DNA from: Halogeometricum borinquense DSM 11551
GTDB lineage: Archaea; Halobacteriota; Halobacteria; Halobacteriales; Haloferacaceae
Direction: 5' to 3'
Length of the DNA: 32,000 nt
Assembly (NCBI RefSeq): GCF_000172995.2
Contig: NC_014731.1
Location: 60,001-92,000, forward strand
The position numbers were made by a program, and so were the translations under genes. This document shows, piece after piece, positions 106 to 18,508 of the stretch (position 1 is the first letter of the stretch; each line of letters starts with the position of its first letter). The notes beneath the pieces were generated by a model that saw only the letters and a list, made by a program, of their open reading frames with translations, searched no databases and had not been told where the DNA came from.

Positions 106-1437
106 TCAGAGGAGTGCGTTGATCTCTTGAGCCGCCTTGTCGAGTGCCTTCTCAGGGTCTTCACCCTGCCACATCGACTGCGCCTGCGTGTGGACCGTGT
201 TCCACATCTTCGATACCTCGGGGTGACTCGGGAACGCCTTGGTGTTCTCCATCTCCTGTGCGACGGTTTTCAGTTTGGGGTTCTCCTCAAGGTATTGCTG
301 GAACGCGTCGGTTTCGTACGCATCTTTCCGGCCGGGGAACCCACCCATCGCCTTCGTGACGTTCTTTTGGACTTCCATCGAGTCGATGTATTCCAGCCAC
401 TTGAGACCGAGCTCCTTGCTCGCGCCGCCTCGACTCGGAACGCTGTAGAACACACCCGCACTCCACGTGTGGCTTACGTCAACGTTCGGTCCGCTCGGGT
501 GCGGATTGTACTGCCAGTCAAGTCCGCTTTTGCGCAGGCGCGGGAAGTGCCACGACCCGGCGTAGAACATCGGCGCTTCGCCCGCGAGGAAGTCCTCGAC
601 AGCCGACGTTCCGCCCGGGTTACGAGCGAGAATCGAATCGTCTTCGACGATTTTTGGCTGGAGGAAGTTCGCCGCTTCGAGGGCGGCGTCGCTGTTGATC
701 CGTGCCTCCGTGCCGTCTTCGCTGAGGTACCCGCTACCGTTCGAGAGAACGAACGAGTCGAAGCCCTCGCCTGCGGGCATCGAGTAGGCCGTGCCGTGCG
801 TCTTCGACAACTCGGTAACCCACGTCTCCCACTCGTCCCAGGACGGCCGATAGGTCGGATCGGGAACTTCGAGTCCGGCTTCTTTGAACATCGACCTGTT
901 GATACAGAGGAGACGGCAGTCGGCGTACCACGGGACAGCCCAGAGCTTACCGTCGTAGCTGGCGTTGTTTCGTGCGGCGGGCACGTAGTCGTCCGCGTTG
1001 AACCCGTTTGCCTCGAGGTCAACTGCGGCACCTTTGGAACCGAAGCGTGAAACCCAAAGCACCGAAAGCGCGAGACTGTCGGGCGCGTTCCCCGCGGGAA
1101 TCGCCGATGTCGCCTTCGAAAGGTAATTCTCGAATGGATAGTACTGCCAATCGACACCGCCGACGTCGAAGTTATTTTTGAACTCTTTGCCTTGCTCTTT
1201 CCGAATCGGGGTCAATCCGGGATCGTTCCACGCCCAAAGCGTCGCCTTTTCCCCGCTCGATCCGCCGGAGTTTGAATCCGTTCCGGAGCTGGTTTCGTCC
1301 CCGCTACCGCCGCCACCGTTGGTGGACGTGTTCGTACTACCATCATCGCCGCCCATACAACCGGCGAGTCCTGCGACACCGGCCGATCCGGTCAGTGAAA
1401 GGATTTTCCGCCGAGAGATACTGCGTCTGTTGCTCAT
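106..1437 (-). CDS. ABC transporter substrate-binding lipoprotein, carbohydrate (family-1 solute-binding) type
   Basis: 443-aa ORF. The N-terminus SRRKILSLTGSAGVAGLAGC is a twin-arginine signal plus lipobox Cys. A G/S/T/D-rich linker typical of haloarchaeal lipoproteins follows. The body resembles sugar-binding proteins, and the gene is flanked by an ABC ATPase and a downstream ORF. Confidence 0.85.
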   Translation of the reverse strand: MSNRRSISRRKILSLTGSAGVAGLAGCMGGDDGSTNTSTNGGGGSGDETSSGTDSNSGGSSGEKATLWAWNDPGLTPIRKEQGKEFKNNFDVGGVDWQYYPFENYLSKATSAIPAGNAPDSLALSVLWVSRFGSKGAAVDLEANGFNADDYVPAARNNASYDGKLWAVPWYADCRLLCINRSMFKEAGLEVPDPTYRPSWDEWETWVTELSKTHGTAYSMPAGEGFDSFVLSNGSGYLSEDGTEARINSDAALEAANFLQPKIVEDDSILARNPGGTSAVEDFLAGEAPMFYAGSWHFPRLRKSGLDWQYNPHPSGPNVDVSHTWSAGVFYSVPSRGGASKELGLKWLEYIDSMEVQKNVTKAMGGFPGRKDAYETDAFQQYLEENPKLKTVAQEMENTKAFPSHPEVSKMWNTVHTQAQSMWQGEDPEKALDKAAQEINALL

Positions 1438-1580: not shown

Positions 1581-2717
1581 CTACGCGCGGATGTCGGCGT
1601 CGGCTTCGGGAGCAGTGGCGATGGTTCTGGTTTTCAGTGATTCCCCGGTGTCGGGGTCGAACAGGTGCATCTTGTCTTCGGGGAAAACGACGTGAAGCGT
1701 AGATCCGGGCTCGACGATGCGGTCGCCACCGACCGTCACGGTGTACTGTTGGTCGCCGATGTCAACGTAGACGTACGTCGTCTCACCCATCGGTTCCGTG
1801 ACAACGACGGGTACTTCGATGGCGTTCGTGTCTCCCGCCGAGGCGAGTTCGATACTCTCCGGGCGGACACCAAGCGTCAACGGTCCCTCACGCACCGAAA
1901 GTTCCTCACTCGTTTCCCGCGAGAGGTCGTAGCGGAACGTTTCGTGGATGAGACTTCCGTCCGCATACTCAACCTCAAAGAAGTTCATCGACGGCGAGCC
2001 AATGAATCCTGCGACGAACCGGTTCGTCGGCTCGTAGTAACACTCCAGTGGGGTCCCCAGCTGCTGGAGTTCGCCGTCGTTGAGAATGGCGATACGGTCG
2101 CCCATCGTCATCGCCTCCGTCTGATCGTGCGTGACGTAGATAGTGGTGATGCCGAGTTGCTGCTGGAGATCCTGCAGTTCGGTCCGCATCGTCGTCCGCA
2201 GTTTCGCGTCGAGGTTCGACAACGGCTCGTCCATCAGGAAAACGGACGGTTCGCGGACGATTGCCCGACCCAGCGCAACGCGTTGTTGTTGCCCACCAGA
2301 GAGTTCACCCGGTTTTTTGTCGAGCAGATCCTCGATGCCCATCATTTCGGCCGTTTGTTCGACTCGTTCTCGTATCTCGTCTTTCTCCATATCGGTGGAC
2401 ATCTTCAGCCCGAATCCGATGTTGTCACGCGCCGTCATATGGGGATACAGCGCGTAGTTCTGGAACACCATCGCAATATCCCGGTCGGTTGGGGGTTTGT
2501 TCGTGATGTCCGTGTCGTCAAGTATGATCTGTCCGGATGTGGCCGACTCTAATCCGGCAATACATCGAAGCGTCGTTGACTTTCCACACCCTGATGGGCC
2601 GACGAAGATGAGGAACTCTCCGTCCTCGATGTCGATGTTCAAATCGTCCACCGCCACGATGGAGCCACCGTCGTCCTCGAAGACCTTCCGGAGGTTACGG
2701 ATGTCTAGTTTTCCCAT
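1581..2717 (-). CDS. ABC transporter ATP-binding protein, MalK/UgpC-like (sugar import)
   Basis: Walker A GPSGCGKST, signature LSGGQQQRV, Walker B FLMDEPLSNLD, H-loop YVTHD, and a C-terminal MalK-type regulatory extension. Start placed at ATG 2717 (MGKLDIRNL...) instead of the 9-codon-longer ORF start at 2744. Confidence 0.9.
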   Translation of the reverse strand: MGKLDIRNLRKVFEDDGGSIVAVDDLNIDIEDGEFLIFVGPSGCGKSTTLRCIAGLESATSGQIILDDTDITNKPPTDRDIAMVFQNYALYPHMTARDNIGFGLKMSTDMEKDEIRERVEQTAEMMGIEDLLDKKPGELSGGQQQRVALGRAIVREPSVFLMDEPLSNLDAKLRTTMRTELQDLQQQLGITTIYVTHDQTEAMTMGDRIAILNDGELQQLGTPLECYYEPTNRFVAGFIGSPSMNFFEVEYADGSLIHETFRYDLSRETSEELSVREGPLTLGVRPESIELASAGDTNAIEVPVVVTEPMGETTYVYVDIGDQQYTVTVGGDRIVEPGSTLHVVFPEDKMHLFDPDTGESLKTRTIATAPEADADIRA

Positions 2718-2828
2718 TGCGAACTCACTACGTGAGCGAATCACTATCGAAGATAATAAAAGTGTAGGATAGTCGCCCGAGAAATCTCAAAAAGACGCGA
2801 GAGGGACGAAATCGGGGACAATGAAGAG

Positions 2829-3791
2829 TCACAGGTCGATACAGTCACCGGTTTCAGCCGCTTCACGCGCCGCGAGCGTTACCTCGAACGTCCTCGCCGC
2901 GTCGGCGTAGTCCGACCGCACGTCGTCCCCCCGTCCGCGTACGGCAGCAAGGAACGCCTCGAATTCACGCTGATACCACGACCCATCGCCTTGGAATGTC
3001 ACGCGCTCGCCGTCTACGACACCGGAAAGAGAGTGCTCGAAGTAATCCAGTTCGAGGAAGGCATCGTCGGCGACGACACGCACTTGGAACCGGGACTCCG
3101 GTGACGCGCAGGTCGAAGAGATGTGTGACACCGCCCCTGACTCGTGTGACAGCGTCGTCGAGGTCGCATCCTGGAAATCAAGCCCGTCGGCAAGCAGGCC
3201 GTCCGTTCCATCGCCACGGACAGTCTCAACCTCACCGAGGAGATACCGGTGTACGTCGAAGACGTGCGTCGATTGTTCGACGAGTTGTCCGCCGGAGTGC
3301 GCGCGCGACGACCACCATGAGGTATCGGGCACCGATACCCAGTACTCGCTATCGACGTGAGCCACTTGCCGCCCGTCCAGTAGTTCCCGTGCCCGGTCCG
3401 TTATCTGCGCGTATCGGCAAACGTACCCGACCTGCGTGACGACGCCCGATGATTCAAGCTCTCGTCGCGTCGCCGCGACCACCTCCGAGTCGAGACCGAC
3501 CGGTTTCTCCACGAACAGGTCGATCCCGGCGTCGGCCGCTTCGCGTTCGTAGCCTTCGTGTGCAAACGGAGGAATAGCGACGACGAGGGCGTCTAGCGAC
3601 TCCGACTCCTCCGCGATGAGTTCGTGACCGTCCGTGTACGCCGTTGCCCCCCGCGGGTCGGCCACCGCACGTGCGCGTTCGCCGTCGATGTCAGCGACGG
3701 CGACGAGCGTCGCACCGTCGTACTGGTCCAACGAATCGAGATGGACCGCGGCGATACCCCCCGCACCGACGAACCCGACGGTTGTTGTCAT
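2829..3791 (-). CDS. Gfo/Idh/MocA family NAD(P)-dependent oxidoreductase (copy E)
   Basis: N-terminal Rossmann fingerprint VGFVGAGGIA, EKP motif (LFVEKPVGL), E-x3-H (VEQSTH) in the C-terminal domain. TATA-like GTTTAAC lies 27 nt upstream of the ATG on the minus strand. Confidence 0.85.
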   Translation of the reverse strand: MTTTVGFVGAGGIAAVHLDSLDQYDGATLVAVADIDGERARAVADPRGATAYTDGHELIAEESESLDALVVAIPPFAHEGYEREAADAGIDLFVEKPVGLDSEVVAATRRELESSGVVTQVGYVCRYAQITDRARELLDGRQVAHVDSEYWVSVPDTSWWSSRAHSGGQLVEQSTHVFDVHRYLLGEVETVRGDGTDGLLADGLDFQDATSTTLSHESGAVSHISSTCASPESRFQVRVVADDAFLELDYFEHSLSGVVDGERVTFQGDGSWYQREFEAFLAAVRGRGDDVRSDYADAARTFEVTLAAREAAETGDCIDL

Positions 3792-3881
3792 GGTGGTCGG
3801 AGGAACTCACCGTCGGATGTTAAACTTTGCCGGGTGCAGTTCGTGCGAACCTATTTCACATCCCCGCCGAATCGAGGTGGT

Positions 3882-4685
3882 ATGCGGTTTGCACTCAACC
3901 AGATGGGGTTCCCCAATGACGGACTCGAAACGAACGCGGAACAACTCGCATCGGCCGGATACGACGGTATCGAACCGAATCTGACCGCCGACGGCCCACT
4001 GTGGGACGACGACGCCGTCGCCGCGTTCGGTGACTGCATCTCGACACTCGAATTAGAAGTCCCCGCCGTCTCCACCACGCTTCACTGGAAGCAGCAATTG
4101 TCGAGTCCCGACGCCGAAACGCGCGAGGCCGGTATCGACGCTGGAGAGCGGATGATTCACATCGCCGACGAACTCAATGCGGGTGCCATTCTCGTCGTTC
4201 CCGCTATCGTTGACGAAGAAACACCGTACGACGCCGCGTACGACCGCGCTCTCGAATCCGTTCGGACGTTAGCCGAGACTGCCGCGGAGTACGACGTGAC
4301 CGTCTGCATCGAGAACGTCTGGAACGACTTCCTGCTCTCACCGCTCGAATTCGCTCAGTTCGTGGACGAGGCGAGCGAAGCGGGACCCGTTGGCGCGTAC
4401 TTCGACGTGGGGAACGTACGCCGGTTCGGCCGTCCCGAACAGTGGATTCGAATTCTGGGAGACCGAATCGAACGGGTACACGTGAAAGATTACGACGCGG
4501 ACGTGGACACGATACACGGCTTTACGTACCCACTACAGGGAGACGTAGACTGGTATGCCGTGCGCGACGCCCTCGCGGACATCGGATACGACGGGTGGCT
4601 GACGGCCGAGGTCCCGCCGTACCAGACGGCACCCGAGCGGATGCCACCACAACTGTTAGACAACCTCCAGTACGTGTTCGACTAG
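3882..4685 (+). CDS. Xylose-isomerase-like TIM-barrel protein (sugar phosphate isomerase/epimerase family)
   Basis: 267 aa from ATG 3882 (MRFALNQMGF...). Motifs VCIENVWN, YFDVGN and HVKDYD are typical of this fold family. TATA-like TATTTCA (3852..3858) lies 23 nt upstream. The 86-codon extension in the ORF track is Arg/Pro-rich antisense of the divergent gene. Confidence 0.8.
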   Translation: MRFALNQMGFPNDGLETNAEQLASAGYDGIEPNLTADGPLWDDDAVAAFGDCISTLELEVPAVSTTLHWKQQLSSPDAETREAGIDAGERMIHIADELNAGAILVVPAIVDEETPYDAAYDRALESVRTLAETAAEYDVTVCIENVWNDFLLSPLEFAQFVDEASEAGPVGAYFDVGNVRRFGRPEQWIRILGDRIERVHVKDYDADVDTIHGFTYPLQGDVDWYAVRDALADIGYDGWLTAEVPPYQTAPERMPPQLLDNLQYVFD

Positions 4686-4712
4686 CGGAGACGCCCCTAC
4701 CTCGCGGAATCT

Positions 4713-5870
4713 TCAGTCATCGCCACCCGCCAGCGACGCGTTTCGAGTCACTCGGTTCGCATCAACAGTTGCGAGGAACACGACAACGGAGACGACAGCG
4801 ACGACGGCGTAGCCGCCGAACAGCCGAAAGATACCAAGTACGTCGAGCAACGCCCCAGAGAGCAGTTCGCCAGTTGCACCGCCGAGGCCAATGCCGAGAG
4901 CGGTCAGCGCTGTCTGCGCCGTCGCCCCGAGTTCGTCCGGCGAGAGTTCGTCTGCAAGTTCGACAACAGAGGTCATTACGGCGGCGTAGCCGACGCCGAG
5001 AAGCGGTTGAACCGCAATCACGGCGGCCGTCGTACCACCGAGGACGTACATTGAGAACACGGCAGCGTGGGCGAGTCCACCAGCGACGAAGAGAAGGCGT
5101 CGAGACGGTGCGGCGCGGACGAACGCGAGGAACGCAATCGCCTCCGCTGTTGTCTTGACAGCGAAGGCGGCCCCCGTTGTCTCGTTCCCGCCGCCGACCG
5201 CGTTGACGAAAAAGACGAAATACGAGTTGTTAGCCGAGAGGACGATGCCGACGACGAACGTCGCCGCGAGGAGTCCGGCGAACGACCGATTACGGAGGAG
5301 CGCCGGAACGCGGCGGCCAACCCCATCGAGTGGGTCGCCGTCCCCGACGGGCGTTCGGAGAACGACAAAAAATGCGAGCGCTGCACCGACCGCGTAGACG
5401 TAGAACAACACGGACGGGTCGGTGCGCGCGAGGACCAATCCGTACGCGAGCGTTCCGACGCCGAATGCGATACTCCCGAACGCGCGAACTGTCCCGTATC
5501 CGTACCCGGCCGAAAGAACAAGCGAATTCGCCACCGGGCGAACGGGCGACTGAAACGCAGCGAACGCAATCGTCAGTCCGACGAGTGCGAGGACACCGAC
5601 GCGCGCGGCGGGGGGAAAAGCCAGCGAGAGCGCACCAGAGACGGCTAACGCGATGAGGACGACACGCTTTTGCGCGCCGAGTCGGTCGCTAAGAAGCCCC
5701 CAAACGGGTTGTGCGACGATACCGACGACGAGAAGTGCCGCGCCGACGAGTCCCATATCACTACCCGAGAGGCCAACAGACCGGAAGTAGACGTTTCGGA
5801 ACGCCAAAATGCCGCTTGAGGAGAGGAAGAAGACGAAGTAGAACGACTGCAGTCTGGTAGACTTTCTCAT
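4713..5870 (-). CDS. MFS transporter
   Basis: 385 aa with about 12 hydrophobic G/A/V/L-rich segments. GLLSDRLGAQKR resembles the MFS TM2-TM3 loop motif. TATA-like TTTATC lies 24 nt upstream of the ATG. Confidence 0.8.
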   Translation of the reverse strand: MRKSTRLQSFYFVFFLSSSGILAFRNVYFRSVGLSGSDMGLVGAALLVVGIVAQPVWGLLSDRLGAQKRVVLIALAVSGALSLAFPPAARVGVLALVGLTIAFAAFQSPVRPVANSLVLSAGYGYGTVRAFGSIAFGVGTLAYGLVLARTDPSVLFYVYAVGAALAFFVVLRTPVGDGDPLDGVGRRVPALLRNRSFAGLLAATFVVGIVLSANNSYFVFFVNAVGGGNETTGAAFAVKTTAEAIAFLAFVRAAPSRRLLFVAGGLAHAAVFSMYVLGGTTAAVIAVQPLLGVGYAAVMTSVVELADELSPDELGATAQTALTALGIGLGGATGELLSGALLDVLGIFRLFGGYAVVAVVSVVVFLATVDANRVTRNASLAGGDD

Positions 5871-6021
5871 TCGATACGTTTGTCGCAGTGAACAGATAAA
5901 GTCGTTTTCACGTCCGCGTCGCGTGCCGGGGCGGGTCGATACCGCACGCTAGACACCAGAGATCACACACCAAGCACACGGCGATACGATTTTCACGGAC
6001 GCCTGCGCAGTCGCAGGTGCG

Positions 6022-6399
6022 ATGGAAGAACTCAGTACCGACGAGGCACCGCCGAGTATCGGCCCGTTCTCGCAGGGGATCCGCGACGGAGACCGCATCT
6101 ACGTCTCAGGACAGGGACCAATCGACCCCGACTCAGGCGACATCGTCGGCGAAGACGCGACAGCACAGACCGAACAAACGCTCGACAACGTCGAGGCAGT
6201 CCTCGAATCGGCCGGGCAGTCACTCGATGACGTGGTGAAGGCAACGGTGTTCGTCACCGATATGGACGATTACGACGCTGTCAACGAAGTGTACGGCGAC
6301 AGAATGAGTCAGCCGTATCCGGCCCGAAGCGCCGTCGAAGTTGTCGAACTCCCGGTAGACATCAGGGTCGAGATAGAAGTTATCGCCAGCGCAGAGTAG
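6022..6399 (+). CDS. ridA: RidA (YjgF/YER057c/UK114) family enamine/imine deaminase
   Basis: 125 aa with the family pattern GPFSQGI, IYVSGQGPIDP, KATVFVTDMDDYDAVNEVY, PARSAVEVVELP. TATA-like TTTTCA lies 26 nt upstream of the ATG. Confidence 0.9.
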   Translation: MEELSTDEAPPSIGPFSQGIRDGDRIYVSGQGPIDPDSGDIVGEDATAQTEQTLDNVEAVLESAGQSLDDVVKATVFVTDMDDYDAVNEVYGDRMSQPYPARSAVEVVELPVDIRVEIEVIASAE

Positions 6400-6420
6400 A
6401 GACGCGGCCCGAGGCCGCGG

Positions 6421-7161
6421 TTACGTTTCTTTTGTCGCCCAGTCGAGAAGGGCACCCCAGAGTACGGGAAGCCCATCCCACTCTAAGAGTTCCATCGGTG
6501 CCCAGTGGGGCGCACAGTCCGTCGCGAAGGCGAACGTCCGGCCTGCACCGGCCTCGCCGACGACGACGAACGGGTCCGCTCGGTCACCAACCGTCGCCCA
6601 CACGTCCGCGTCGTCTTTCGCTTGGAGGTGGTTGTAACCGAGAACGGCAGGCCACGTCTCGGGAAGGTCAGCGGGAACGCCGCGGTTCATCGGGATCGCG
6701 CCAGCGGGGGTTTCGACTCTATCGTCGCCGTCACGTATCTCGACCGGAAGCACATCAGCGATTGGCGTTCGGCCATAGCGTGCCGCACCGCCCTTCCCGG
6801 CGAAACTCATGTAGCCGCCGATCATGCCGAGTGCGCCGCCGTCGCGGACGTACTCAGCGAGGAGTCGGCACCGGTCAGTGTCGGTGTCGCCTGCAGTTAC
6901 GGCGGGCGTCAACTGGAGGGAGTCTGCGCCGACGTCGCTCAGCAGCACGAGGTCGTAGCTGTCGAGTTCCTCGCGGGTGCCGGGGAACGACGTTAGCGTC
7001 TCCTCGCACGTCAAGAAGTCCACAGCTGCACCGTTGACTTCGAGCGCGGCCACAAGGTGTTCCTCGGCCGTTCCGTAGTCCGCGTCCACGAGGACGTTTC
7101 GTCCTTTGACCTCGAACGTCACCGTCGTCCACGATTCGCCCGCAAGGAGTACGCGGGTCAT
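6421..7161 (-). CDS. GATase1-like (putative glutamine amidotransferase-like, DUF1355/ThuA-like fold) protein
   Basis: 246 aa. The pattern ESW...YDLVLLSDVGADSL...GGALGMIGGYMSFAGKGG...VLPVEI...DDRVE matches my memory of the putative-GATase family found beside sugar genes. No obvious Cys-His-Glu triad was recognised. The start overlaps the stop of the upstream ADH by 1 nt. Confidence 0.6.
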   Translation of the reverse strand: MTRVLLAGESWTTVTFEVKGRNVLVDADYGTAEEHLVAALEVNGAAVDFLTCEETLTSFPGTREELDSYDLVLLSDVGADSLQLTPAVTAGDTDTDRCRLLAEYVRDGGALGMIGGYMSFAGKGGAARYGRTPIADVLPVEIRDGDDRVETPAGAIPMNRGVPADLPETWPAVLGYNHLQAKDDADVWATVGDRADPFVVVGEAGAGRTFAFATDCAPHWAPMELLEWDGLPVLWGALLDWATKET

Positions 7162-8180
7162 TACGGTCGAAGGACGGCTTTGACCACGCCGTCGCGGCGT
7201 TCACGGACCGTCTCGATGGCCGTTTCGTACTCCGCGAGGTCGAACTCGTGGGTGACGATACCGTCGATAGACAGGTCACCGCGGCGGAACAGATCGATAA
7301 CTTGGTCAACCGTATGAGAGGCGGTGACGCCGCCGACGACTTGCAACTCCTTCGAGACAATGTCGTTGGGGTCGATCTCCTTCATACCGCCGAAGACGCC
7401 CGTAAGGACGACGTTTCCGCGCTTTCTCGTCGCCTTCAGACACGTGTTCACCACGTCTCCTGCACCCGCCGCTTCGACGCAGATGTCCGCACCTTTGCCG
7501 TCGGTGTACTCCAAGATGCGCTCGACCGGGTCCTCCTCGCGGACGTTGATAGTCAACGACGCGCCGTGATGTTCACCGATTTCGAGGCGTTCCTCGCGGG
7601 TTCCAGTGAGAATCACGTCTTTGACGCCCTGCGCGCGCAGGAGTTGGACGCCGTAGAGACCGAGCGAACCCGGTCCGAGAACGACACCGGTATCGTCGAA
7701 CGAGGTAGAGACGCGTTGAAGCCCGTGAAGCGTACATCCCGCCGAGTCGATTTGGGTCGCTTCGAGATCCGACACGTCGTCGGGAATCGGCGTGAGCGTG
7801 TAGGCCGGGAGCGCGGCGTACTCGCGGTAGCCGCCGTCGATAGTGAAACCGACCTCTTTCAGGTCATCGCACTGGTAGTACCGGCCCTCCCGACAGGCCG
7901 TACAGGTGCCGCAATAGACGAATCCGTGAAGAGCCACTCTGTCGCCGACGTTCAGGTCTTCGACGCCCTCACCCAGTTCGACCACTTCGGCGCACACCTC
8001 GTGGCCGGGAACGAGCGGGTAGTCAGTCCACGGTGGACCCTCACCCTCCATCAGTCCGATGTCGCTACCACAGATACCGACTGCGGAGACGCGGACGAGC
8101 GCTTCGCCCGGTTCCGGTTCGGGACGAGGTCGATCCTCATCCCAGATACTCCCTTCTCCGTCGATGACGACTGCTTGCAT
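7161..8180 (-). CDS. Zinc-dependent alcohol/polyol dehydrogenase (MDR family, sorbitol/threonine dehydrogenase-like)
   Basis: GICGSDIGL and PGHEVCAEV (catalytic Zn ligands), structural Zn cluster CGTCTACREGRYYQC (C-x2-C-x2-C-x7-C), Rossmann GPGSLGLYG. I prefer ATG 8180 (MQAVVIDG...) because TTATTA (8207..8212, minus strand) lies 26 nt upstream. ATG 8201 is an alternative. The 546-aa ORF-track version runs through the divergent PIG-L gene and is rejected. Confidence 0.85.
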   Translation of the reverse strand: MQAVVIDGEGSIWDEDRPRPEPEPGEALVRVSAVGICGSDIGLMEGEGPPWTDYPLVPGHEVCAEVVELGEGVEDLNVGDRVALHGFVYCGTCTACREGRYYQCDDLKEVGFTIDGGYREYAALPAYTLTPIPDDVSDLEATQIDSAGCTLHGLQRVSTSFDDTGVVLGPGSLGLYGVQLLRAQGVKDVILTGTREERLEIGEHHGASLTINVREEDPVERILEYTDGKGADICVEAAGAGDVVNTCLKATRKRGNVVLTGVFGGMKEIDPNDIVSKELQVVGGVTASHTVDQVIDLFRRGDLSIDGIVTHEFDLAEYETAIETVRERRDGVVKAVLRP

Positions 8181-8267
8181 AGCGTTTTGGTTATCTAACA
8201 TCCGAGTAATAAGCGTGTCGCCGAGTGGCATAACACTTAATGTGTGATTCGTCCTCAGTGGGTGTGT

Positions 8268-8969
8268 ATGCACGTGACAGCGATAGTTGCGCATCCAGAC
8301 GACGCAGATATCTTCTGCGGCGGAACTCTCAAGAAACACGCCGAACGCGGCGACGACGTTACCATCGTCTATATGACTCGCGGCGAATACGGCGGGTTCG
8401 ACACGACCGAGGAAGAAGTGGCCGAAACGCGCGAATCGGAGGCCGAAGCGGCTGCTGAGGCCCTCGACGCGGAGGCACGCTTTCTCGACTTCCGAGACGG
8501 TCGTATCACCTACTCGATGGAGAACCGCCTCGAACTGGTTGACGTGATACGCGAACTTCGTCCGGACATCATCCTCACGCACTTCCGGGACGATATGCAC
8601 CCCGACCACCGAGTCACCTCCCGACTCGTCACAGACGCGTACTACATGGCGTCGCTGCCGTTGGCACAAACTGATCACGAGGAGTGGGAACCGGACAACG
8701 TCTACTACTTCGGAAAACCGACCGCCGACGAGTTCGACCCCGAGGTGTTCATCGACATGAGCGACCAACAGGAAGCGAAAGAGGAAGCGATTCTCCAACA
8801 CGAGTCACAAGTCGAGTGGCTAGAGGAACACGGCGGTGTGGACGCCGAATTCGACGGTCTCGTCGAAGGGGTGCGAGCGCAGGCACGGACCACGGGTCGA
8901 ACCCGCGGTGCCGAGTTCGCGGAAGGTTTCGTTCCGCTTCACAAGGGAACGTCCGAGTACCTCGAATAG
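8268..8969 (+). CDS. PIG-L/LmbE family N-acetyl-sugar deacetylase
   Basis: AHPDDADIFCGG (AHPDD motif) near the N-terminus, a second metal motif MHPDHRV, 233 aa. ATG 8268 is preferred over the GTG at 8244. TATA-like ACTTAAT lies 26 nt upstream. Confidence 0.85.
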   Translation: MHVTAIVAHPDDADIFCGGTLKKHAERGDDVTIVYMTRGEYGGFDTTEEEVAETRESEAEAAAEALDAEARFLDFRDGRITYSMENRLELVDVIRELRPDIILTHFRDDMHPDHRVTSRLVTDAYYMASLPLAQTDHEEWEPDNVYYFGKPTADEFDPEVFIDMSDQQEAKEEAILQHESQVEWLEEHGGVDAEFDGLVEGVRAQARTTGRTRGAEFAEGFVPLHKGTSEYLE

Positions 8970-8977
8970 ACGTCAGT

Positions 8978-8992
8978 ACCCCCGTTCGACTG
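8978..8992 (-). promoter_or_regulatory. ORB-like element (left, inverted) with C-run/G-string
   Basis: ACCCCCGTTCGACTG. Its reverse complement CAGTCGAACGGGGGT resembles the archaeal origin recognition box core (..CAGTGGAAAC...GGGG) with one base missing from the A-run. Confidence 0.35.
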
Positions 8993-9030
8993 TTTTTACT
9001 GCGACGGATCGTTGCGGACAACGGTTCCAA

Positions 9031-9110
9031 TCTCCGGATAACTAGATTCCGAGTAAACATAGTTGACTGTAAGCTATTCGCAAGCCATTACACTATTAGA
9101 ATCGTAATGA
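9031..9110. other. AT-rich stretch between the two ORB-like elements (candidate duplex unwinding element)
   Basis: Hand count 30 G+C in 80 nt (about 38%), against about 63% in sampled coding DNA. Confidence 0.4.
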
Positions 9111-9113
9111 GAT

Positions 9114-9139
9114 ACAGGTGAAACGAGGGGGGAGGGGGT
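9114..9139 (+). promoter_or_regulatory. ORB-like element (right) with long G-string
   Basis: ACAGGTGAAACGAGGGGGGAGGGGGT. GTGAAAC followed by a G-string matches my memory of haloarchaeal/Sulfolobus ORB elements (TCCAGTGGAAAC..GGGGG). It lies 66 nt upstream of the orc1/cdc6 ATG. Confidence 0.5.
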
Positions 9140-9173
9140 ACTGAGACGGAGCTGACAGCCGAACCCCGACGAA

Positions 9174-9180
9174 TTTATCA
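9174..9180 (+). promoter_or_regulatory. TATA-like box of orc1/cdc6 (TTTATCA)
   Basis: 24 nt upstream of ATG 9205. This spacing is typical of haloarchaeal leaderless transcripts. Confidence 0.4.
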
Positions 9181-9204
9181 TGGTCCTCACTGTTACGGCA
9201 ACAT

Positions 9205-10485
9205 ATGACACGCCACGACGAAGCGATCGAGGACGCGAGGGCGGTGGACGACGCGTTCAGCGTCCGCGAGAACATCTTCCTACAGGAGAGCCTGCTCGAC
9301 GTTTGTTACGTCCCCGGCCCTGACCGAATCGTCGGGCGGAACGAAGAGATTCGCCGCCTCGCCGGCTCTCTGAGTCCGGCAACCGTCGGCGATTCGCCGA
9401 ACAACGTCTTCCTCTACGGAAAAACGGGGACCGGCAAGTCGCTCTGTGCGAAGTACGCGACCAAACGGACCGTAGAGGCGGCCGTAGAGAACGATATCAC
9501 CGTCGGACGCGTCGTGGTCGATTGTTCGCAGGAAGATACGGAAACACGCGCCGTCAGATGTATCGCCCGTGAACTAAACGACCCCGAAGAGACCGATATC
9601 GTGATTCCCGAAACGGGACTCGGTCGGTCCCGGTACTACACGCTCCTCTGGGACGTTCTCGATTCGCGCTTCGACGTGGCGTTCATCGTTCTCGACGAAA
9701 TCGACCACCTCGAAACCGACGACATTCTCATGCAACTCTCGCGGGCGGCGGAATCAGAGAAGATTTCGCGCTGTGCGCTCGGGATCATCGGAATCAGCAA
9801 CAAGATTGGCTACCGCGACCGCCTACAAGAGCGCGTCAAGAGCAGCTTACAGGAACGAGAAATCGTGTTTGCACCGTACGGGAGAGACAAACTCCGCGAG
9901 ATACTCCGGTCACGGGCGGACGCGTTCCAGACGGATACGCTCTCGAACGAGGTCATCACCGAGTGTGCCACGCTGGCGGCCGAAGAACACGGTGACGCCC
10001 GGAAGGCGATAGACCTCCTGCGACACGCGGGCGAAGTCGCCCGGAGCAACGGGGAAACCGCCGTCGGCGTCGATCACGTACGGGAGGCGAACGAACTCGC
10101 CGAACGCGACCGGTTCCGCGAACTGCTCGCCGGAGCGACCGACCAGCAGAAGGCGACGCTTCTGTCCGTCGTCCTCTTGGCCCTCTCGGAGAAGACGCGG
10201 ACCTTCAAGACTCCCGAGATATACACCGCCTACGAGGAAATCTGCGCCGACACCGGTCTCGAAGTACTGTCGAAGCGTCGCGTTCACGACCTGCTGCGCG
10301 AGTGGGAGTTCCTCGAAGTCCTCGATATCGTCCGAACCGGTGACGGCCGCGCCCGCGGAAGCTACCTCGAACACCACTTGGTCGAAGACCCGTCAGTCAT
10401 CCGGTCGGTGTTCAACGAAGACGGTCGATTCTCCGGCGTCGGGTTTGCCGCCGGTCCGAGCACGAACACGTGGTCGAATATCTGA
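9205..10485 (+). CDS. orc1: Orc1/Cdc6 family replication initiator protein
   Basis: N-terminal LDVCYVPGPDRIVGRNEEI, Walker A GKTGTGKS, Walker B IVLDEIDHL, AAA+ lid (GDARKAIDLLR) and a C-terminal winged-helix region. TATA-like TTTATCA (9174..9180) lies 24 nt upstream of the ATG. Confidence 0.92.
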   Translation: MTRHDEAIEDARAVDDAFSVRENIFLQESLLDVCYVPGPDRIVGRNEEIRRLAGSLSPATVGDSPNNVFLYGKTGTGKSLCAKYATKRTVEAAVENDITVGRVVVDCSQEDTETRAVRCIARELNDPEETDIVIPETGLGRSRYYTLLWDVLDSRFDVAFIVLDEIDHLETDDILMQLSRAAESEKISRCALGIIGISNKIGYRDRLQERVKSSLQEREIVFAPYGRDKLREILRSRADAFQTDTLSNEVITECATLAAEEHGDARKAIDLLRHAGEVARSNGETAVGVDHVREANELAERDRFRELLAGATDQQKATLLSVVLLALSEKTRTFKTPEIYTAYEEICADTGLEVLSKRRVHDLLREWEFLEVLDIVRTGDGRARGSYLEHHLVEDPSVIRSVFNEDGRFSGVGFAAGPSTNTWSNI

Positions 10486-10538
10486 ACGGGGCATGTAGAG
10501 GGAAGTTTTAATAGCGAGACATGCGCACCGCGACAGTG

Positions 10539-11537
10539 ATGCAACGAGTTGGCTTAGTCGGGAGTGGCCTCATGGCTACGACCCACGCTAACAGCTACCA
10601 GGAAGTAGACGACGCCGAAGTGGTCGCCGTCGCCTCCCACGGGGAGAATCGAGACGAATTTGCCGCCGAACACGCACCCGGAGCGGACGTGTACTACGAC
10701 CCCGAGGAGATGATGGATGATGCGGACGTGACCGTCATCGACGCCTGTACGCCGACGCCGACACACAGGCCGTTGATAGAGGCCGCAGCGGACCGCGGAC
10801 TCGACGTGTTCTCCGAAAAGCCGATGGCTCGGACGGTCGAGGACGCAGAGGCCGTTGTAAACGCCGTCGAGGAGTCTGGAATCACGTTCATGACGGGACA
10901 CGTCCTGCGATTCTTCCCGGAGTACGCCGAGGCGAAGCGCCGCATCGACGACGGTGAAATCGGGACGCCCGGAACCCTTCGTGCAGAACGACTGTCGAGT
11001 CCACCACGCTACGGCACGGAAAACTGGTTCAGCGACAAAGCCCAAAGCGGTGGTGTGCTCCTCGATATGGCTATCCACGACTTCGATTTCCTCCGGTGGG
11101 TCGCAGGCGACGTCGAACGCGTGTTCACCCGGACGGCAGAGTGGGATAACGACCACCTCCACCAACACGCCGCTGTCCACCTCCGCTTCGAGGACGGCAC
11201 CGTCGGGCAGGTCGAAACGTCGTGGGCCTACCCAGAGGACACACCCTTTACGACCGCCTACGAGTTCGCCGGCAGCGAAGGCATGCTAGAGTTCGATAGC
11301 CGGGACGAACACTCGATCCGTATTTCCGGCACCGCAGACGACGCGAACGTCCCGGCAAGTGCGTTGAAAACGAGTCCGTACACGGCCGAACTCAGACACT
11401 TCGTGGACTGTCTGGAGAACGGCACCGAACCCAAAATATCGCCAGAAGACGCCCGCGAAGCGGTTAAGATCTCGCTCGCAGCCATCGAGTCCGGCGAGCG
11501 CGGTGAACCCGTCGAGCTCTCGGAGGTGGGCGCATGA
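10539..11537 (+). CDS. Gfo/Idh/MocA family oxidoreductase (copy A)
   Basis: VGLVGSGLMA fingerprint, FSEKPMA, D-x3-H (LDMAIHDFDF). ATG 10539 (MQRVGLVG...) is preferred over 10521 because TTTAATA (10507..10513) lies 25 nt upstream. The stop overlaps the next start (ATGA). Confidence 0.85.
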   Translation: MQRVGLVGSGLMATTHANSYQEVDDAEVVAVASHGENRDEFAAEHAPGADVYYDPEEMMDDADVTVIDACTPTPTHRPLIEAAADRGLDVFSEKPMARTVEDAEAVVNAVEESGITFMTGHVLRFFPEYAEAKRRIDDGEIGTPGTLRAERLSSPPRYGTENWFSDKAQSGGVLLDMAIHDFDFLRWVAGDVERVFTRTAEWDNDHLHQHAAVHLRFEDGTVGQVETSWAYPEDTPFTTAYEFAGSEGMLEFDSRDEHSIRISGTADDANVPASALKTSPYTAELRHFVDCLENGTEPKISPEDAREAVKISLAAIESGERGEPVELSEVGA

Positions 11538-12571
11538 ACGTCAAAATCGGAATCTGTTCGACTGCGCATCTGCATGCTGATTCGTACGCGGCCTGTCTTC
11601 GAGAGAGCGATGCCGAGTTTGTCGGCGTCACTGAACACGATGACAGAGCGGACGACGCGCAGGCGAAAGCCGCGGAATACGGCGTTGATTTCTACGAACC
11701 GGACGAGTTACTCGAACGGGTCGATGGCGTCGTCGTCTGTTCGACGAACGCCGCCCACCGAGACTGGGTCGAGCATGCGGCCGACGCCGGCGTGGATATT
11801 CTCTGTGAGAAACCGCTCGCGCCATCCATCGAAGACGCCGAACAGATGGTCGAGACGTGCCGCGAGGCGGACGTCCATCTCGGAGTGGCGATGCCACTTC
11901 GGTTCAACCAACCCGTTAGAAACGCGAAGACGGCGCTCGAAGACGACGCACTCGGCGAACTACGGTTCCTCAGCGGGACGAATCGCGGACAGATGCCCGG
12001 TGGATGGTTCGCTGACCCAGAGCAGGCGGGCGGCGGCGCGGTGACGGACCACTCCGTCCACTTGGTCGATGCGGTACGGTGGATGACCGGCGAAGAGGTA
12101 GCCGAAGTGTACGCCGAGACGGGAACGCGATTCCACGATATTGCCGTCGAGGACGTGAACGTGCTATCGATGGAACTTACGGATGGAACCGAGTTTGTCC
12201 TCGACGGGTCGTGGAGTAAACCCGACGAGTGGGACAACTGGGGCGACGCAACGCTCCGTCTCGTCGGCACAGAGGGTGTCGTCTCCATCGACTGCTTCGG
12301 GCAGACGATCAAACAGACGCGCGACACGGACGACGACCCCGGGATCCGCTCTGTGTTCTGGGGTTCGAATCCCGATGAAGGACTCGTCGAAGACTTCGTT
12401 CGCGCGGTCGAAGCGGACCGCCCGCCACTGAAGACAGGGGCGGACGCGCTCGAAGACGTAGCTGTTGTCGAGGCAGCGTACGAGTCCGCAGAACAGTCCG
12501 CTCCCGTCAGCGTCGAACGACCGACCCCGAAAGGGAGAGTCGTCAGCGACGGAAGCGGAACCGAGGAGTGA
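11534..12571 (+). CDS. Gfo/Idh/MocA family oxidoreductase (copy B, variant GICSTAH fingerprint)
   Basis: N-terminal KIGICSTAHLH in place of GxGxxG, CEKPLA, DHSVH. It is a clear paralogue of the convergent gene at 12626..13621. 4-nt ATGA overlap with copy A. Confidence 0.85.
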   Translation: MNVKIGICSTAHLHADSYAACLRESDAEFVGVTEHDDRADDAQAKAAEYGVDFYEPDELLERVDGVVVCSTNAAHRDWVEHAADAGVDILCEKPLAPSIEDAEQMVETCREADVHLGVAMPLRFNQPVRNAKTALEDDALGELRFLSGTNRGQMPGGWFADPEQAGGGAVTDHSVHLVDAVRWMTGEEVAEVYAETGTRFHDIAVEDVNVLSMELTDGTEFVLDGSWSKPDEWDNWGDATLRLVGTEGVVSIDCFGQTIKQTRDTDDDPGIRSVFWGSNPDEGLVEDFVRAVEADRPPLKTGADALEDVAVVEAAYESAEQSAPVSVERPTPKGRVVSDGSGTEE

Positions 12572-12625
12572 AAATCGGGACATCGACCGACGAAAGACCC
12601 CCAACCGAGAATCAACCACAGGGCG

Positions 12626-13621
12626 TCAGATAACGCTGGTATCGACTTCGACCGGTTCGCCTCGTTCAGCAGATTCATACGCCGCTTCCATGACGGCAAC
12701 CGTCGCCACGGCGTCCGATAGCGTCGTCTGTGGTTGGCGGCCGGTTCGAACTGACTCAGCGAAGTCTCGTAACAGTTCGATGTTCGGGTCCGCACCCCAG
12801 TAGATAGATTCGACGCTCCGGTCCTGTTTCGTATCCTGCACGTGCGTACACCGCTGGCCGAAGCAGTCGGCCGAGAGCGTTCCGTCGGTGCCGACGAATT
12901 CAACGCGTGCGTCCCCCCAGAACGGGTTTTTCAGCGGTGTACTCCACGATCCGTCGAGGACGAACGACGCGCCGTTCGAGAGCGTCATCGACAGCAGATT
13001 CACGTCTTCGACCGGAATGTCGTAAAATCGCGTATCGAGTTCGGCGTACACGTCTTCGACTTCCTCGTTCGTTATCCAGCGAACCACGTCGATGATGTGG
13101 TCAGTGTGGTCCATGACGGCCCCGCCGCCCGCGAGTTCGGGGTTAGTGAACCACCCACCGGGCATCCGACCGCGGTTGACGCCTGAAACGGCGACCACGT
13201 CTCCGAGCGTGCCGTCTTCGTACGCTCGCTTGAGTCGGATCATTGGCCGACTACAACGAACGGGCATCGCCATTCCGGCGACGATACCGCTCTCGTCGCA
13301 CCGGTCTCGGAGACGTTTCGCCTCCGACAGCGACGTTGCGAGCGGTTTCTCCGTGAGAACCGCAACATCGTGAACCAGAGCCAAATCGAACAGTTCGCCG
13401 TGGATAGCCGTCGGCGAGCAGATAACGACGCCCTCGACGCTCCGCATCAGTTCCGACCGAGACATGGCTTTCGTCCCGACGGCGGACGCGCGGCGACGCC
13501 CCCGCTCGACGTTTTCATCCGAAATACCGACGAGTTCGACGTCTGAAAGTTTCGACAGCAGCGCTGCGTACACCTCAGCGTTGACGTGAGCGGTCGAACA
13601 GATACCGAGACGGACGGTCAT
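12626..13621 (-). CDS. Gfo/Idh/MocA family oxidoreductase (copy C, variant GICSTAH fingerprint)
   Basis: RLGICSTAHVN, TEKPLA, DHTDH. It shares long conserved blocks with copy B: MPGGWF, AGGGAV, VEDVN.LSM, FVLDGSWS, AYESAE. Confidence 0.85.
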   Translation of the reverse strand: MTVRLGICSTAHVNAEVYAALLSKLSDVELVGISDENVERGRRRASAVGTKAMSRSELMRSVEGVVICSPTAIHGELFDLALVHDVAVLTEKPLATSLSEAKRLRDRCDESGIVAGMAMPVRCSRPMIRLKRAYEDGTLGDVVAVSGVNRGRMPGGWFTNPELAGGGAVMDHTDHIIDVVRWITNEEVEDVYAELDTRFYDIPVEDVNLLSMTLSNGASFVLDGSWSTPLKNPFWGDARVEFVGTDGTLSADCFGQRCTHVQDTKQDRSVESIYWGADPNIELLRDFAESVRTGRQPQTTLSDAVATVAVMEAAYESAERGEPVEVDTSVI

Positions 13622-14589
13622 CGACTCACCTCACCCAGTTCGACCGGTCGTTCTTCGTCCATCGACGTGCGGACGGCGACGACGGTTCGCAATAGGTCGC
13701 CATCCGATCCGATGGCGGCCGGCGGTCGTTCGGCGCCGTGAAGTCGGTCAACGAACGCTCGGAGGAGGCGACCCCGGCAGTCATCCTCCGGCGGGTCCGG
13801 ATCGAGTGATCCATGTTCGTCTTTGAGCGCCGCGGACGCATCGTCCTCCGTGAACCGAAGTCGTCCGTGATCGCCCGCGTACTCGACCTCGACGCGCGAT
13901 TCTGGCGGGTCCGCTCGGCCCCACGTCGCTTCAACGGTTCCTCGACCGCCGTTGCGAAATCGCAGGAGGAGGTGGACGTGGGCGTACGAATCGCCGGTTC
14001 GTCGTCGTGCGAAGACGCGTTCGACCGGACCGAACGTCCAGTGGAGCGTATCTACGTCGTGTGAGACGACGTCGCAGAGGGCATCTTCGGGCGATGATGC
14101 GCGGTCGATTCCGAGATACGAGTCGTTCCATCCGACGCGGTCGAAGGGCGCGGTACGCTTCACTCGGGCGACACCGAGGGTCCCGATATCACCGGACTCG
14201 ACACCCCGTTGCAGTCGCTCGTAGAGGCGAGAGAACCGATGGGAAGAAGGCGCGTACAGCCATCCATCACCGTTCGACGCCAGTTCTTCGACACGTTCGA
14301 CCGTCTGCGTATCGAGCGCAACCGGTGGATCACACCGGACGGGAATCTCCTCGTCGAGTGCCGCCTCGACCGACTGTACGTGAGCGCTTCCGGGGCCGCA
14401 GACATCAACCGCGTCAGCCTCTGTCTCCGTGACCGCGTCGGACACCGACTCGAACGTCGGGATGGCAGTACCGGACGGCGGGTCGTCGAATCCGACCGCA
14501 GCGCAGACTGTCACATCCTCGAACCGGACGTACCGCTCGGCGTGGCCCCGGGCGGCCGGTTCGCGTCCGACGATGGCGATGCGTCGCAT
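13618..14589 (-). CDS. Divergent Gfo/Idh/MocA-like protein (copy D) lacking the canonical cofactor and EKP motifs
   Basis: 323 aa from ATG 14589 (MRRIAIVGREPAARGH...). TTATAAA (14612..14618, minus strand) lies 22 nt upstream, which supports this start over the ORF-track 14784. VRCDPP replaces the EKP motif, and D-x3-H (CDVVSHD) is retained. ATGA overlap with copy C. Confidence 0.65.
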   Translation of the reverse strand: MRRIAIVGREPAARGHAERYVRFEDVTVCAAVGFDDPPSGTAIPTFESVSDAVTETEADAVDVCGPGSAHVQSVEAALDEEIPVRCDPPVALDTQTVERVEELASNGDGWLYAPSSHRFSRLYERLQRGVESGDIGTLGVARVKRTAPFDRVGWNDSYLGIDRASSPEDALCDVVSHDVDTLHWTFGPVERVFARRRTGDSYAHVHLLLRFRNGGRGTVEATWGRADPPESRVEVEYAGDHGRLRFTEDDASAALKDEHGSLDPDPPEDDCRGRLLRAFVDRLHGAERPPAAIGSDGDLLRTVVAVRTSMDEERPVELGEVSR

Positions 14590-14611
14590 AGCTATACGTC
14601 CTCCACGATAG

Positions 14612-14618
14612 TTTATAA
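14612..14618 (-). promoter_or_regulatory. TATA-like box (TTATAAA) for Gfo/Idh/MocA-like copy D
   Basis: 22 nt upstream of ATG 14589 on the minus strand. Confidence 0.4.
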
Positions 14619-14723
14619 GCGTTCGCGAGACCGAAGACGAATTCAAACCGAAACAGAAGTAACGGAGGAGAAACCGGAACGCACCAGTGAACCACTCGAA
14701 GGCGATAGGGAACCGCCGCGAGG

Positions 14724-15935
14724 TTACGAGAGATTCTCTCGGATGCGTTCTGCGACGTACTGAGCCTCGTCGTCGGTGAGACACATCGGGTTGAGAACGA
14801 ACGTCGCATCAGCGAGAGCGTCCGCCCCGACAAACACGCGCGGATTCTCGCGTCGGAGTGCGAGGACGAGTTCCGCCGCCGTCATCCCCGCAGCGTCCTC
14901 GTCTACCGTGACGTGGAGGGCCGGGGCAACGTCCACTTTACCGCCGCCTACTGTCTCACAGGAGAGCGTGTCTACGTCAGTGAGTTCAGCGTCAAGAAGG
15001 GCAGTTCGGTCGGTCCACTCAGCAACCAGTTCGTCTTGATCCTCCTCCAAGAACAGTTCGAGCGCACGGATGAGGCCGACGAGTTCCTCTTTGCCGACTT
15101 TCAACGTCCGACCGATACCTTGTCGCGGAACGCCGTCGTAGGCCGACGGGTCGAGGAGGTCACGTGGCGGATCCCAAACTTCGGCGGCAGCGTGCATATC
15201 GAGATGCTGGAAGGCCGCAGATTCAATCAGGTCGGCGCGTCCGGCGAGGATACCCGTCGATTGCGGGCCGCGAATCGCCTTCCCGCCGCTGAAGACGACC
15301 AGATCAACGCCCGCGTCGATAAAGCGGGTGAGATTCGCCTTCGGTGGTACCTCCGCCGCAGCGTCCACAAGAACGGGAATGTCGTGCCGATGGGCGATTT
15401 CGACGACCTTCGAGAGTGGCGGCGTCGTGTACTCCTTCTGAAGATAGGCGATAGCGGCGGTATCTTCCGTGATTGCCGTCTCTATCTCCCATGGTTCGAT
15501 CGCCGCAGATCCAGTGCCGAGGTGTGGGTCGTTCGTTCCCACATCGACGATTGTCGCGCCGGCGGCCCGGATAGCGTGGTCGTAGCCAGTTCGGTGCGTC
15601 CGCGGCATGATGACTTCGTCCGGTCGGCCCTCGGTGTCGGGGAGGCGGTCCATCGCGGCTACGTCGTCACCTGCGATACACGCCGCCGTGCCGAGCGTCA
15701 TCGCGGCGGCCGCCCCGCTTGCGACGTAGCCCGCTTCGGCCCCGGTACAGTCAGTTATGAGTTCACTCGCTCGTGCCTGCAAGTCGGAGATACGGGCGAA
15801 CCCTTCGGCGGCGCGTGACATCGCTTCCACCGCCTCGGGTCGGATGAGGCTCCCGCCGATTCGTGTCTTCGTCCCCGCCGCGTTCACGACGCGCGGAACG
15901 CCAAGTTCGTCGTAGATGGATGAGTCACTCGTCAT
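14724..15935 (-). CDS. DgaE/SelA-like fold-type-I PLP-dependent enzyme (putative amino-sugar-acid ammonia-lyase)
   Basis: 403 aa. Features: an N-terminal IYDELGVPRVVNAAGTKTRIGGS block, VDAAAE, FSGGKAIRGPQSTG (presumptive Schiff-base Lys), and GIGRTLKVGKEE. From memory these match the D-glucosaminate-6-phosphate ammonia-lyase / SelA-like family. Confidence 0.75.
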   Translation of the reverse strand: MTSDSSIYDELGVPRVVNAAGTKTRIGGSLIRPEAVEAMSRAAEGFARISDLQARASELITDCTGAEAGYVASGAAAAMTLGTAACIAGDDVAAMDRLPDTEGRPDEVIMPRTHRTGYDHAIRAAGATIVDVGTNDPHLGTGSAAIEPWEIETAITEDTAAIAYLQKEYTTPPLSKVVEIAHRHDIPVLVDAAAEVPPKANLTRFIDAGVDLVVFSGGKAIRGPQSTGILAGRADLIESAAFQHLDMHAAAEVWDPPRDLLDPSAYDGVPRQGIGRTLKVGKEELVGLIRALELFLEEDQDELVAEWTDRTALLDAELTDVDTLSCETVGGGKVDVAPALHVTVDEDAAGMTAAELVLALRRENPRVFVGADALADATFVLNPMCLTDDEAQYVAERIRENLS

Positions 15936-15982
15936 ACGAGCACGGACGAACCCACACCGCCCCCGTCAATAAGTCATTCGCG

Positions 15983-16741
15983 TCAGTCGCCCGTTACACC
16001 GAGAAGCGACTGAAGCCGTTCACCCCCGCGCTGAAGTGTCTCGGCTTGGGCCGTCGATTGACCGTGTTCGAAGACGAACCATTCGATGCCGAGGTCGCGT
16101 GCGACTTCGACGGCCGATTCGAGGTCGGTATCGCCGTCTCCGAGTTCGACGTGGTCACGGTCGGGGTCGTCTACGAGCGTGTCAGTCACGTGGACCAGCG
16201 GAATCCGGTCGGCGTACGTTCGGAGGAGTGCCACCGGATCAGCACCGCCTTTCGTGGCGAGGCCAACGTCGAGTTCGAAGCCGACGCTATCGGACGTCTC
16301 ACGGATCAGTCGTTCAAACGCGAGGTCCCCGTCAATATCACCGAATTCGTGCGTATGGTTGTGATACAGGAGGTCGAATCCGCGGTCCGACAGGCGGTCT
16401 CCGAGCGACGACAGTTTCGTCGCCGTCTCCGCGACCGCCTCGGTTGACTCGAAGTGCGAGTCGTCCAATGCGGGGATGACGAGCGTCGAACAGCCGAGTT
16501 CGCCGTACATCTCCACGACGGATTCGAAGTCGCTTTCGAGTTCATCGTACGGGACGTGTGCGCTGACCGCAGACAGGTCGTTCTCCGTGAGTGCTTGCCG
16601 AACATCCTCAGGGGGCGACTCGCGGACGCGGTATGCGAACTCGACGCCGTCATATCCTTCGTCCGCGACTCGCCGGAGCACGTCCGGATACGAGTCGGTG
16701 AGATCCCTGACAGTGTACATCTGCACGGCTATCGCTGGCAT
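15983..16741 (-). CDS. Xylose-isomerase-like TIM-barrel protein (sugar phosphate isomerase/epimerase family), second copy
   Basis: 252 aa. MPAIAVQMYTVRD start, GYDGVEF, LLYHNHTHEF, FELDVG, VHVTD: typical metal-binding TIM-barrel pattern. First gene of a same-strand run 16741 -> 12626. Confidence 0.8.
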   Translation of the reverse strand: MPAIAVQMYTVRDLTDSYPDVLRRVADEGYDGVEFAYRVRESPPEDVRQALTENDLSAVSAHVPYDELESDFESVVEMYGELGCSTLVIPALDDSHFESTEAVAETATKLSSLGDRLSDRGFDLLYHNHTHEFGDIDGDLAFERLIRETSDSVGFELDVGLATKGGADPVALLRTYADRIPLVHVTDTLVDDPDRDHVELGDGDTDLESAVEVARDLGIEWFVFEHGQSTAQAETLQRGGERLQSLLGVTGD

Positions 16742-17305: not shown

Positions 17306-18508
17306 ATGACAGGGCAACCTCCATTCCGGTCGCCGGAATGGCTCCGCCGAGATGCCATCGGCGCGCTTCGCTTCCACCGAGAGCGGTCGATGGATACGCA
17401 CTTCGGTGGCTACATCACGCAGGTGAGCGACCGAGACGGCGCGATATACGACTCGCGGACGAAACACCTCGTCCCCACCGCTCGATTCGTCTTCGCGTTC
17501 AGCATCGGCGCGCTTCTGGACGGGCCAGTGTGGTGTGAGCCAGCCGCCGAACACGGTCTCTCGTATCTTCGCAACGTCGCCTACGACGAAGAACACGGCG
17601 GGTACAGTTGGCTGTTCGAAGGTCGAAATGTGACAGACGAGACGCGCTCGACGTACGGCCACGCGTTCGTCCTTCTCGCGTACGCCACGGCGACGCGCGC
17701 CGGAATCGGAGACGTAGAGGACGACATCAGGGAGACGTTCGACATCTTGGACGAACGGTTCTGGGAAGAAGAACACGGCGCGTTTGCCAGCAACCGGACA
17801 GCCGAGTGGGATCCGGCCGAACCCGATTACCGGGGGCAGAACGCGAACATGCACTCCTGTGAGGCTCTACTCGCAGCCTACGAGGCCACCGGCGAAGAGC
17901 GATATCTCTCACGGGCGGTCACCGTCGCAGAAACCATCGCACGCGACAAACCTGACGAGGCGGATGGGCTCCTCTGTGAGCACTTTACGTCCGACTGGGA
18001 GATAGACTGGGAGTACAACCGCGACCAGAAGGCCGACCTGTTCAGACCGTGGGGCTACCAACCCGGACACATGCTCGAGTGGGCGAAGCTCCTTGTCCGA
18101 CTCCACCACCACCACGACGGCAACTGGTATCTCGACAGAGCAAAGCGGTTCTTCGACGCCTCCGTCACGGACGGCTGGGACGACGAACGCGGGGGATTCT
18201 ACTACACCATCGACCGCGACGGAGCTCCCATCGTCGATGCGAAATACACGTGGGCGCTCGAAGAAGGTCTCGGCGCGGCGGCACGTCTGGGCGCAGTGAC
18301 GAACGATGACCGCTACTGGGAGTGGTTCGACAGGATCCACGCGTACCTGCACGAGAACGCGACGAACCACTCGCTCGGGATTCGCTACGAACGGCTCACA
18401 CCCGACGGCGAAATTCACCCCACAATCGACGAGACGCCGAAAGTCAAAAGCGGATATCACCACGTCAACGCCTGCTACGAAGTACTTGAGTCGCTAGACG
18501 CAGTGTAG
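17306..18508 (+). CDS. AGE-family (N-acylglucosamine 2-epimerase / aldose-ketose isomerase) protein
   Basis: 400 aa with repeated (alpha/alpha)6-barrel motifs: YGHAFVLLAYA, NANMHSCEALLAAYEATG, GHMLEWAKLL, WALEEGLGAAARL. Confidence 0.8.
   Translation: MTGQPPFRSPEWLRRDAIGALRFHRERSMDTHFGGYITQVSDRDGAIYDSRTKHLVPTARFVFAFSIGALLDGPVWCEPAAEHGLSYLRNVAYDEEHGGYSWLFEGRNVTDETRSTYGHAFVLLAYATATRAGIGDVEDDIRETFDILDERFWEEEHGAFASNRTAEWDPAEPDYRGQNANMHSCEALLAAYEATGEERYLSRAVTVAETIARDKPDEADGLLCEHFTSDWEIDWEYNRDQKADLFRPWGYQPGHMLEWAKLLVRLHHHHDGNWYLDRAKRFFDASVTDGWDDERGGFYYTIDRDGAPIVDAKYTWALEEGLGAAARLGAVTNDDRYWEWFDRIHAYLHENATNHSLGIRYERLTPDGEIHPTIDETPKVKSGYHHVNACYEVLESLDAV

Follow-up and report, generated by a model that had tools for sequence, protein, structure and literature searches.

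Does the Halogeometricum borinquense DNA analysed here (the window, 32,000 nucleotides) hold a catabolic gene cluster of its own, and if so, what would that cluster break down? The haloarchaeal cluster in the window is genuine and not a random mosaic; its gene order is shared by at least eight genomes. Its genes, with the one flanking transporter that belongs to it, are as follows.

106-1437 (-): solute-binding protein of a CUT1-type sugar ABC importer (Pfam SBP_bac_8, SBP_bac_1)
1581-2744 (-): MalK/UgpC-type ABC ATPase of the importer (ABC_tran, OB_MalK and TOBE_2)
2829-3791 (-): Gfo1, with canonical GxGxxA loop and EKP motif (Pfam)
3882-4685 (+): TIM1, a xylose-isomerase-like TIM barrel (AP_endonuc_2, 145 bits)
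6022-6399 (+): RidA enamine/imine deaminase (TIGR00004, 147 bits vs a cut-off of 106)
8268-8969 (+): PIG-L/LmbE (CE14) de-N-acetylase (PIG-L, 124 bits)
9205-10485 (+): Orc1/Cdc6 paralogue, intact, mid-cluster (Pfam; TIGR02928, 388 bits vs a cut-off of 181)
10539-11537 (+): Gfo2, a canonical Gfo/Idh/MocA oxidoreductase (motifs, family match)
11534-12571 (+): Gfo3, with a shortened Gly loop (GICSTAH), EKP and DxxxH retained
12626-13621 (-): Gfo4, a Gfo3 paralogue (48% identical) with the same shortened Gly loop
13618-14589 (-): Gfo5, a divergent Gfo/Idh/MocA protein; CDPP replaces EKP and the catalytic Lys is lost
14724-15935 (-): DgaE-related PLP enzyme, SelA/Aminotran_5-type (best PDB match DgaE 7lc0, E=4e-41)
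15983-16741 (-): TIM2, a Mn-type TIM barrel (AP_endonuc_2, 73 bits)

The conserved order, found in at least eight genomes from four genera, runs ABC importer, Gfo1, TIM1, PIG-L, Orc1/Cdc6, Gfo2-Gfo3, Gfo4-Gfo5, and TIM2, with protein identities of 39-79% across the syntenic clusters. It was seen in H. borinquense, H. limi, Halocatena marina (chromosome), Haladaptatus pallidirubidus, Haladaptatus halobius, Haloprofundus halobius, H. salinisoli, and sp. MHR1. In seven of these, TIM2 is followed by RidA and the PLP gene; in the window itself RidA lies on its own, with the MFS gene on one side and the GATase1-like gene on the other. No PLP gene is present in the cluster of Haladaptatus halobius, so the two modules described below are separable. 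A sequence-only reading of this DNA had listed most of these genes, and each one that it named was found where it had placed it or a few codons off, with strong family matches, but it had missed the intact Orc1/Cdc6 gene at 9205-10485 (+). Its expectation of co-inheritance, the lack of which it had named as a ground for refutation, was borne out, as the block is inherited together across genera. The PIG-L, PLP, and RidA genes that it had grouped also recur as neighbours in many haloarchaea.

With a probability of roughly 0.5, the cluster catabolises an imported glycoside or oligosaccharide containing an N-acetyl-amino sugar, joining two modules, one for glycosidase-free cleavage and one for deamination. 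What was observed is which genes are present, their synteny, the conservation of active sites, and the similarity of folds; from these we infer the substrate, the sequence of steps, which Gfo proteins pair with each other, and all the catalytic activities. In the first module, the glycoside would be taken up by the CUT1 ABC importer, and its N-acetyl group would be removed by the PIG-L enzyme. The sugar ring would then be oxidised to a 3-keto-glycoside by a Gfo dehydrogenase, most likely the coupled Gfo2-Gfo3, and the glycosidic bond would be broken by TIM2 acting as a Mn-dependent beta-eliminase. The resulting keto-glycal would be hydrated, isomerised, and re-reduced by TIM1, Gfo1, and the Gfo5-Gfo4 pair. 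In the second module, the free amino sugar may be oxidised at C1, for which the local candidates are a Zn-dependent dehydrogenase (Zn-ADH) or a Gfo enzyme; a glucose-dehydrogenase-like gene lies within or adjoining two orthologous clusters. The DgaE-related PLP lyase would then remove water and ammonia from a non-phosphorylated 2-amino-aldonate, and the released enamine/imine would be hydrolysed by RidA. The predicted product is 2-keto-3-deoxy-gluconate or -galactonate (KDG or KDGal), which could enter the semiphosphorylative Entner-Doudoroff or the DeLey-Doudoroff pathway, with genes elsewhere.

TIM2 is a candidate 3-keto-glycoside 1,2-lyase (beta-eliminase). Its best PDB sequence match is the Agrobacterium tumefaciens 3-keto-O-glycoside beta-eliminase AtOGE (8BVK, E=1.8e-22), and all five AtOGE active-site residues (His132, His134, Asp163, His189, and Glu233) are retained. 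The orthologues keep these residues, which show little or no variation in an alignment of 26 family sequences. The top Foldseek matches of the AF2 model (pLDDT 96.7) were 8TCD, 8TCR, 8TCT, and 8BVK; the fold is closest to Alistipes AL1 and Bacteroides BT1, which are 3-keto-beta-glucopyranoside-1,2-lyases, with AtOGE next. Against this assignment, the metal-binding residues of TIM2 are common to many xylose-isomerase-like TIM barrels, and IolE is likewise a good fold match (E=6.6e-13). The operon in which AtOGE works encodes two TIM barrels along with a Gfo reductase and performs oxidation, elimination, hydration, and reduction (PMC10628242). The sequence-only reading had invoked a three-enzyme scheme, with a TIM-barrel lyase acting between a Gfo dehydrogenase and a Gfo reductase, and this scheme gains direct support from the sequence, fold, and catalytic residues of TIM2.

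TIM1 (72-76% identical in the full clusters) resembles ketose 3-epimerases, with weak matches to IolO and to psicose or tagatose 3-epimerases and nothing stronger. It is a candidate epimerase, isomerase, or glycal hydratase, and similarity to the known keto-glycal hydratases was not detected. Gfo1 is divergently paired with TIM1; its motifs are kept in the orthologues, which are 58-64% identical at the equivalent position in the full clusters.

All five GFO_IDH_MocA proteins of the window were confirmed with Pfam. Gfo2 is a candidate glycoside dehydrogenase, and its stop codon overlaps the start of Gfo3 (ATGA), indicating translational coupling; the pair, with its 4-bp overlap, was also seen in three other loci (L088, L089, and L091). 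Gfo3 is widespread in Halobacteria at 53-76% identity, and Gfo4 is 68-71% identical in the full clusters; neither has a normal dinucleotide-binding loop. Gfo5, the stop of which overlaps the start of Gfo4 (ATGA) in the same coupled manner, occurs in full clusters only. Its CDPP is kept in all five aligned orthologues, and it is probably a non-catalytic partner, judging from these motifs. Gfo2-Gfo3-TIM2 stands on its own in Halomicrobium urmianum as a minimal module. None of the Gfo, TIM, or ADH proteins attains any NCBIfam equivalog cut-off, and the Gfo and TIM proteins fall below those for every characterised glycoside, levoglucosan, or inositol dehydrogenase.

The importer and the PIG-L enzyme would act at the start of the first module. 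Orthologues of the solute-binding protein (67-68% identical) lie at the equivalent position in loci L087, L090, and L092, where two BPD_transp_1 permeases are next to them; in H. borinquense the permease genes are outside the window, past its left edge. The ATPase belongs to the NCBIfam UgpC subfamily (446 bits vs a cut-off of 432) and is 76-79% identical in the full clusters. The PIG-L protein, 73-78% identical in the full clusters, is nearest to enzymes acting on GlcNAc-glycosides, namely BshB1 (160 bits, below the 182.5 cut-off) and diacetylchitobiose deacetylase (8bgn, E=8e-22).

The PLP enzyme had been called a DgaE-like lyase, which holds for its homology to DgaE and not for its identity. 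Like DgaE, it retains the PLP lysine Lys213, Asp189, and the carboxylate arginine Arg226, a position that is Arg or Lys in most homologues. In contrast to DgaE, it has lost the strictly conserved His162-His163 loop, and the phosphate-site residues Arg301, Arg332, and Arg346 have become Ala, Gly, and Met. Its C-terminal domain aligns only weakly to DgaE (19.8 bits), but the multiple alignment leads to the same result. None of 18 haloarchaeal homologues has Arg at these three positions, which come from a phosphate site derived by manual docking with no complex structure. With the loop and the phosphate arginines gone and a score under the NCBIfam cut-offs, a true DgaE was rejected. We propose an ammonia-lyase. 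Because the His-His loop and the three phosphate-binding arginines are missing, the likelier substrate is a non-phosphorylated 2-amino-2-deoxy-aldonate, e.g. D-glucosaminate or D-galactosaminate, and the lack of a PTS or kinase would therefore be expected. In Halosimplex, PLP homologues have KDG/KDGal-kinase-like genes in their vicinity. RidA copies (58-78% identical) adjoin PLP homologues in many haloarchaea. The bacterial homologues of the PLP enzyme have as neighbours ROK regulators, sugar ABC systems, SDRs, and deacetylases.

Simple PLP clusters, in which Gfo and TIM genes are absent, were found in Haloferax, Haloarcula, Natrialba, Natrinema, and Halostella. They contain some or all of ABC, IclR, a GDH-like gene, galactonate dehydratase, PIG-L, and RidA. 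Those of Haloferax and Haloarcula additionally carry a GH3, and that of Haloferax larsenii scores above the NagZ cut-off (232 bits vs 207), whereas the full clusters have no glycosidase. This complementary distribution, glycosidase vs Gfo/TIM, was counted in favour of the proposed pathway as the best explanation.

The pathway had also been put forward as undescribed in archaea. For the deamination half this does not stand, as a 2025 in-silico prediction for Natrarchaeobius runs from a CE14 deacetylase through a glucose dehydrogenase to a DgaE homologue, with a RutC/RidA gene (PMC12343721); that proposal of a deacetylase/GDH/DgaE-like route is independent of the present analysis. For the Gfo/TIM half and its tie to deamination, no archaeal description was found in the literature searched.

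Five further genes had been listed with the set, the Zn-ADH, GATase1-like, MFS, AGE, and GH3 genes. They do not belong to the conserved core, and no orthologue lies at the equivalent position in other full clusters. The GH3 gene is on the right flank; the others are as follows.

4713-5870 (-): MFS_1_like/LacY-like permease (Pfam), accessory
6421-7161 (-): GATase1_like protein (PF07090, 238 bits), accessory
7161-8180 (-): Zn-dependent medium-chain dehydrogenase, threonine-DH/IolM-like, accessory
17306-18508 (+): AGE-family protein, mannose-isomerase-like (GlcNAc_2-epim, 330 bits), peripheral, outside the conserved core

Only 45-46% identical copies of the MFS permease were seen, at other positions flanking the clusters in L087 and L090. 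The GATase1_like protein, with STM1381 (3soz), a protein of unknown function, as best PDB match, has copies (57-67% identical) near PLP or PIG-L genes in loci L005, L013, and L085. Its gene shares one base with the Zn-ADH gene (TAATG), so that the two are translationally coupled. The Zn-ADH, missing from other full clusters, has a 75% identical copy adjoining the PLP gene in Halostella (L016); it is a candidate sugar dehydrogenase, and assignment as a glucose dehydrogenase was rejected given its resemblance to threonine dehydrogenase or IolM. The AGE protein matches D-mannose isomerase (226 bits) more strongly than GlcNAc 2-epimerase (71 bits), with both scores under the 600-bit NCBIfam cut-offs; AGE genes also adjoin or lie near PLP homologues in loci L083 and L013. 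The right-flank GH3 is BglX/xylosidase-like, and a NagZ-like assignment was rejected.

The Orc1/Cdc6 gene encodes intact Walker A, Walker B, and sensor motifs, and its product shares 67-70% identity with its counterparts in the orthologous clusters. No description of an Orc1 gene embedded in such a cluster was found in the literature searched. It lies 35-55 bp upstream of Gfo2 and is co-oriented with it, a position identical in all eight clusters. A conserved element precedes it.

9086-9140 (+): conserved cis element upstream of orc1, an inverted repeat CATTAC-N12-GTAATG followed by ORB-like ACAGGTGAAACGAGGGG with a G-string

This element had no match in 1.52 Mb of other loci and is present as a single copy upstream of orc1 in all eight clusters. 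Downstream of it, at 9174-9180, is a TTTATCA box.

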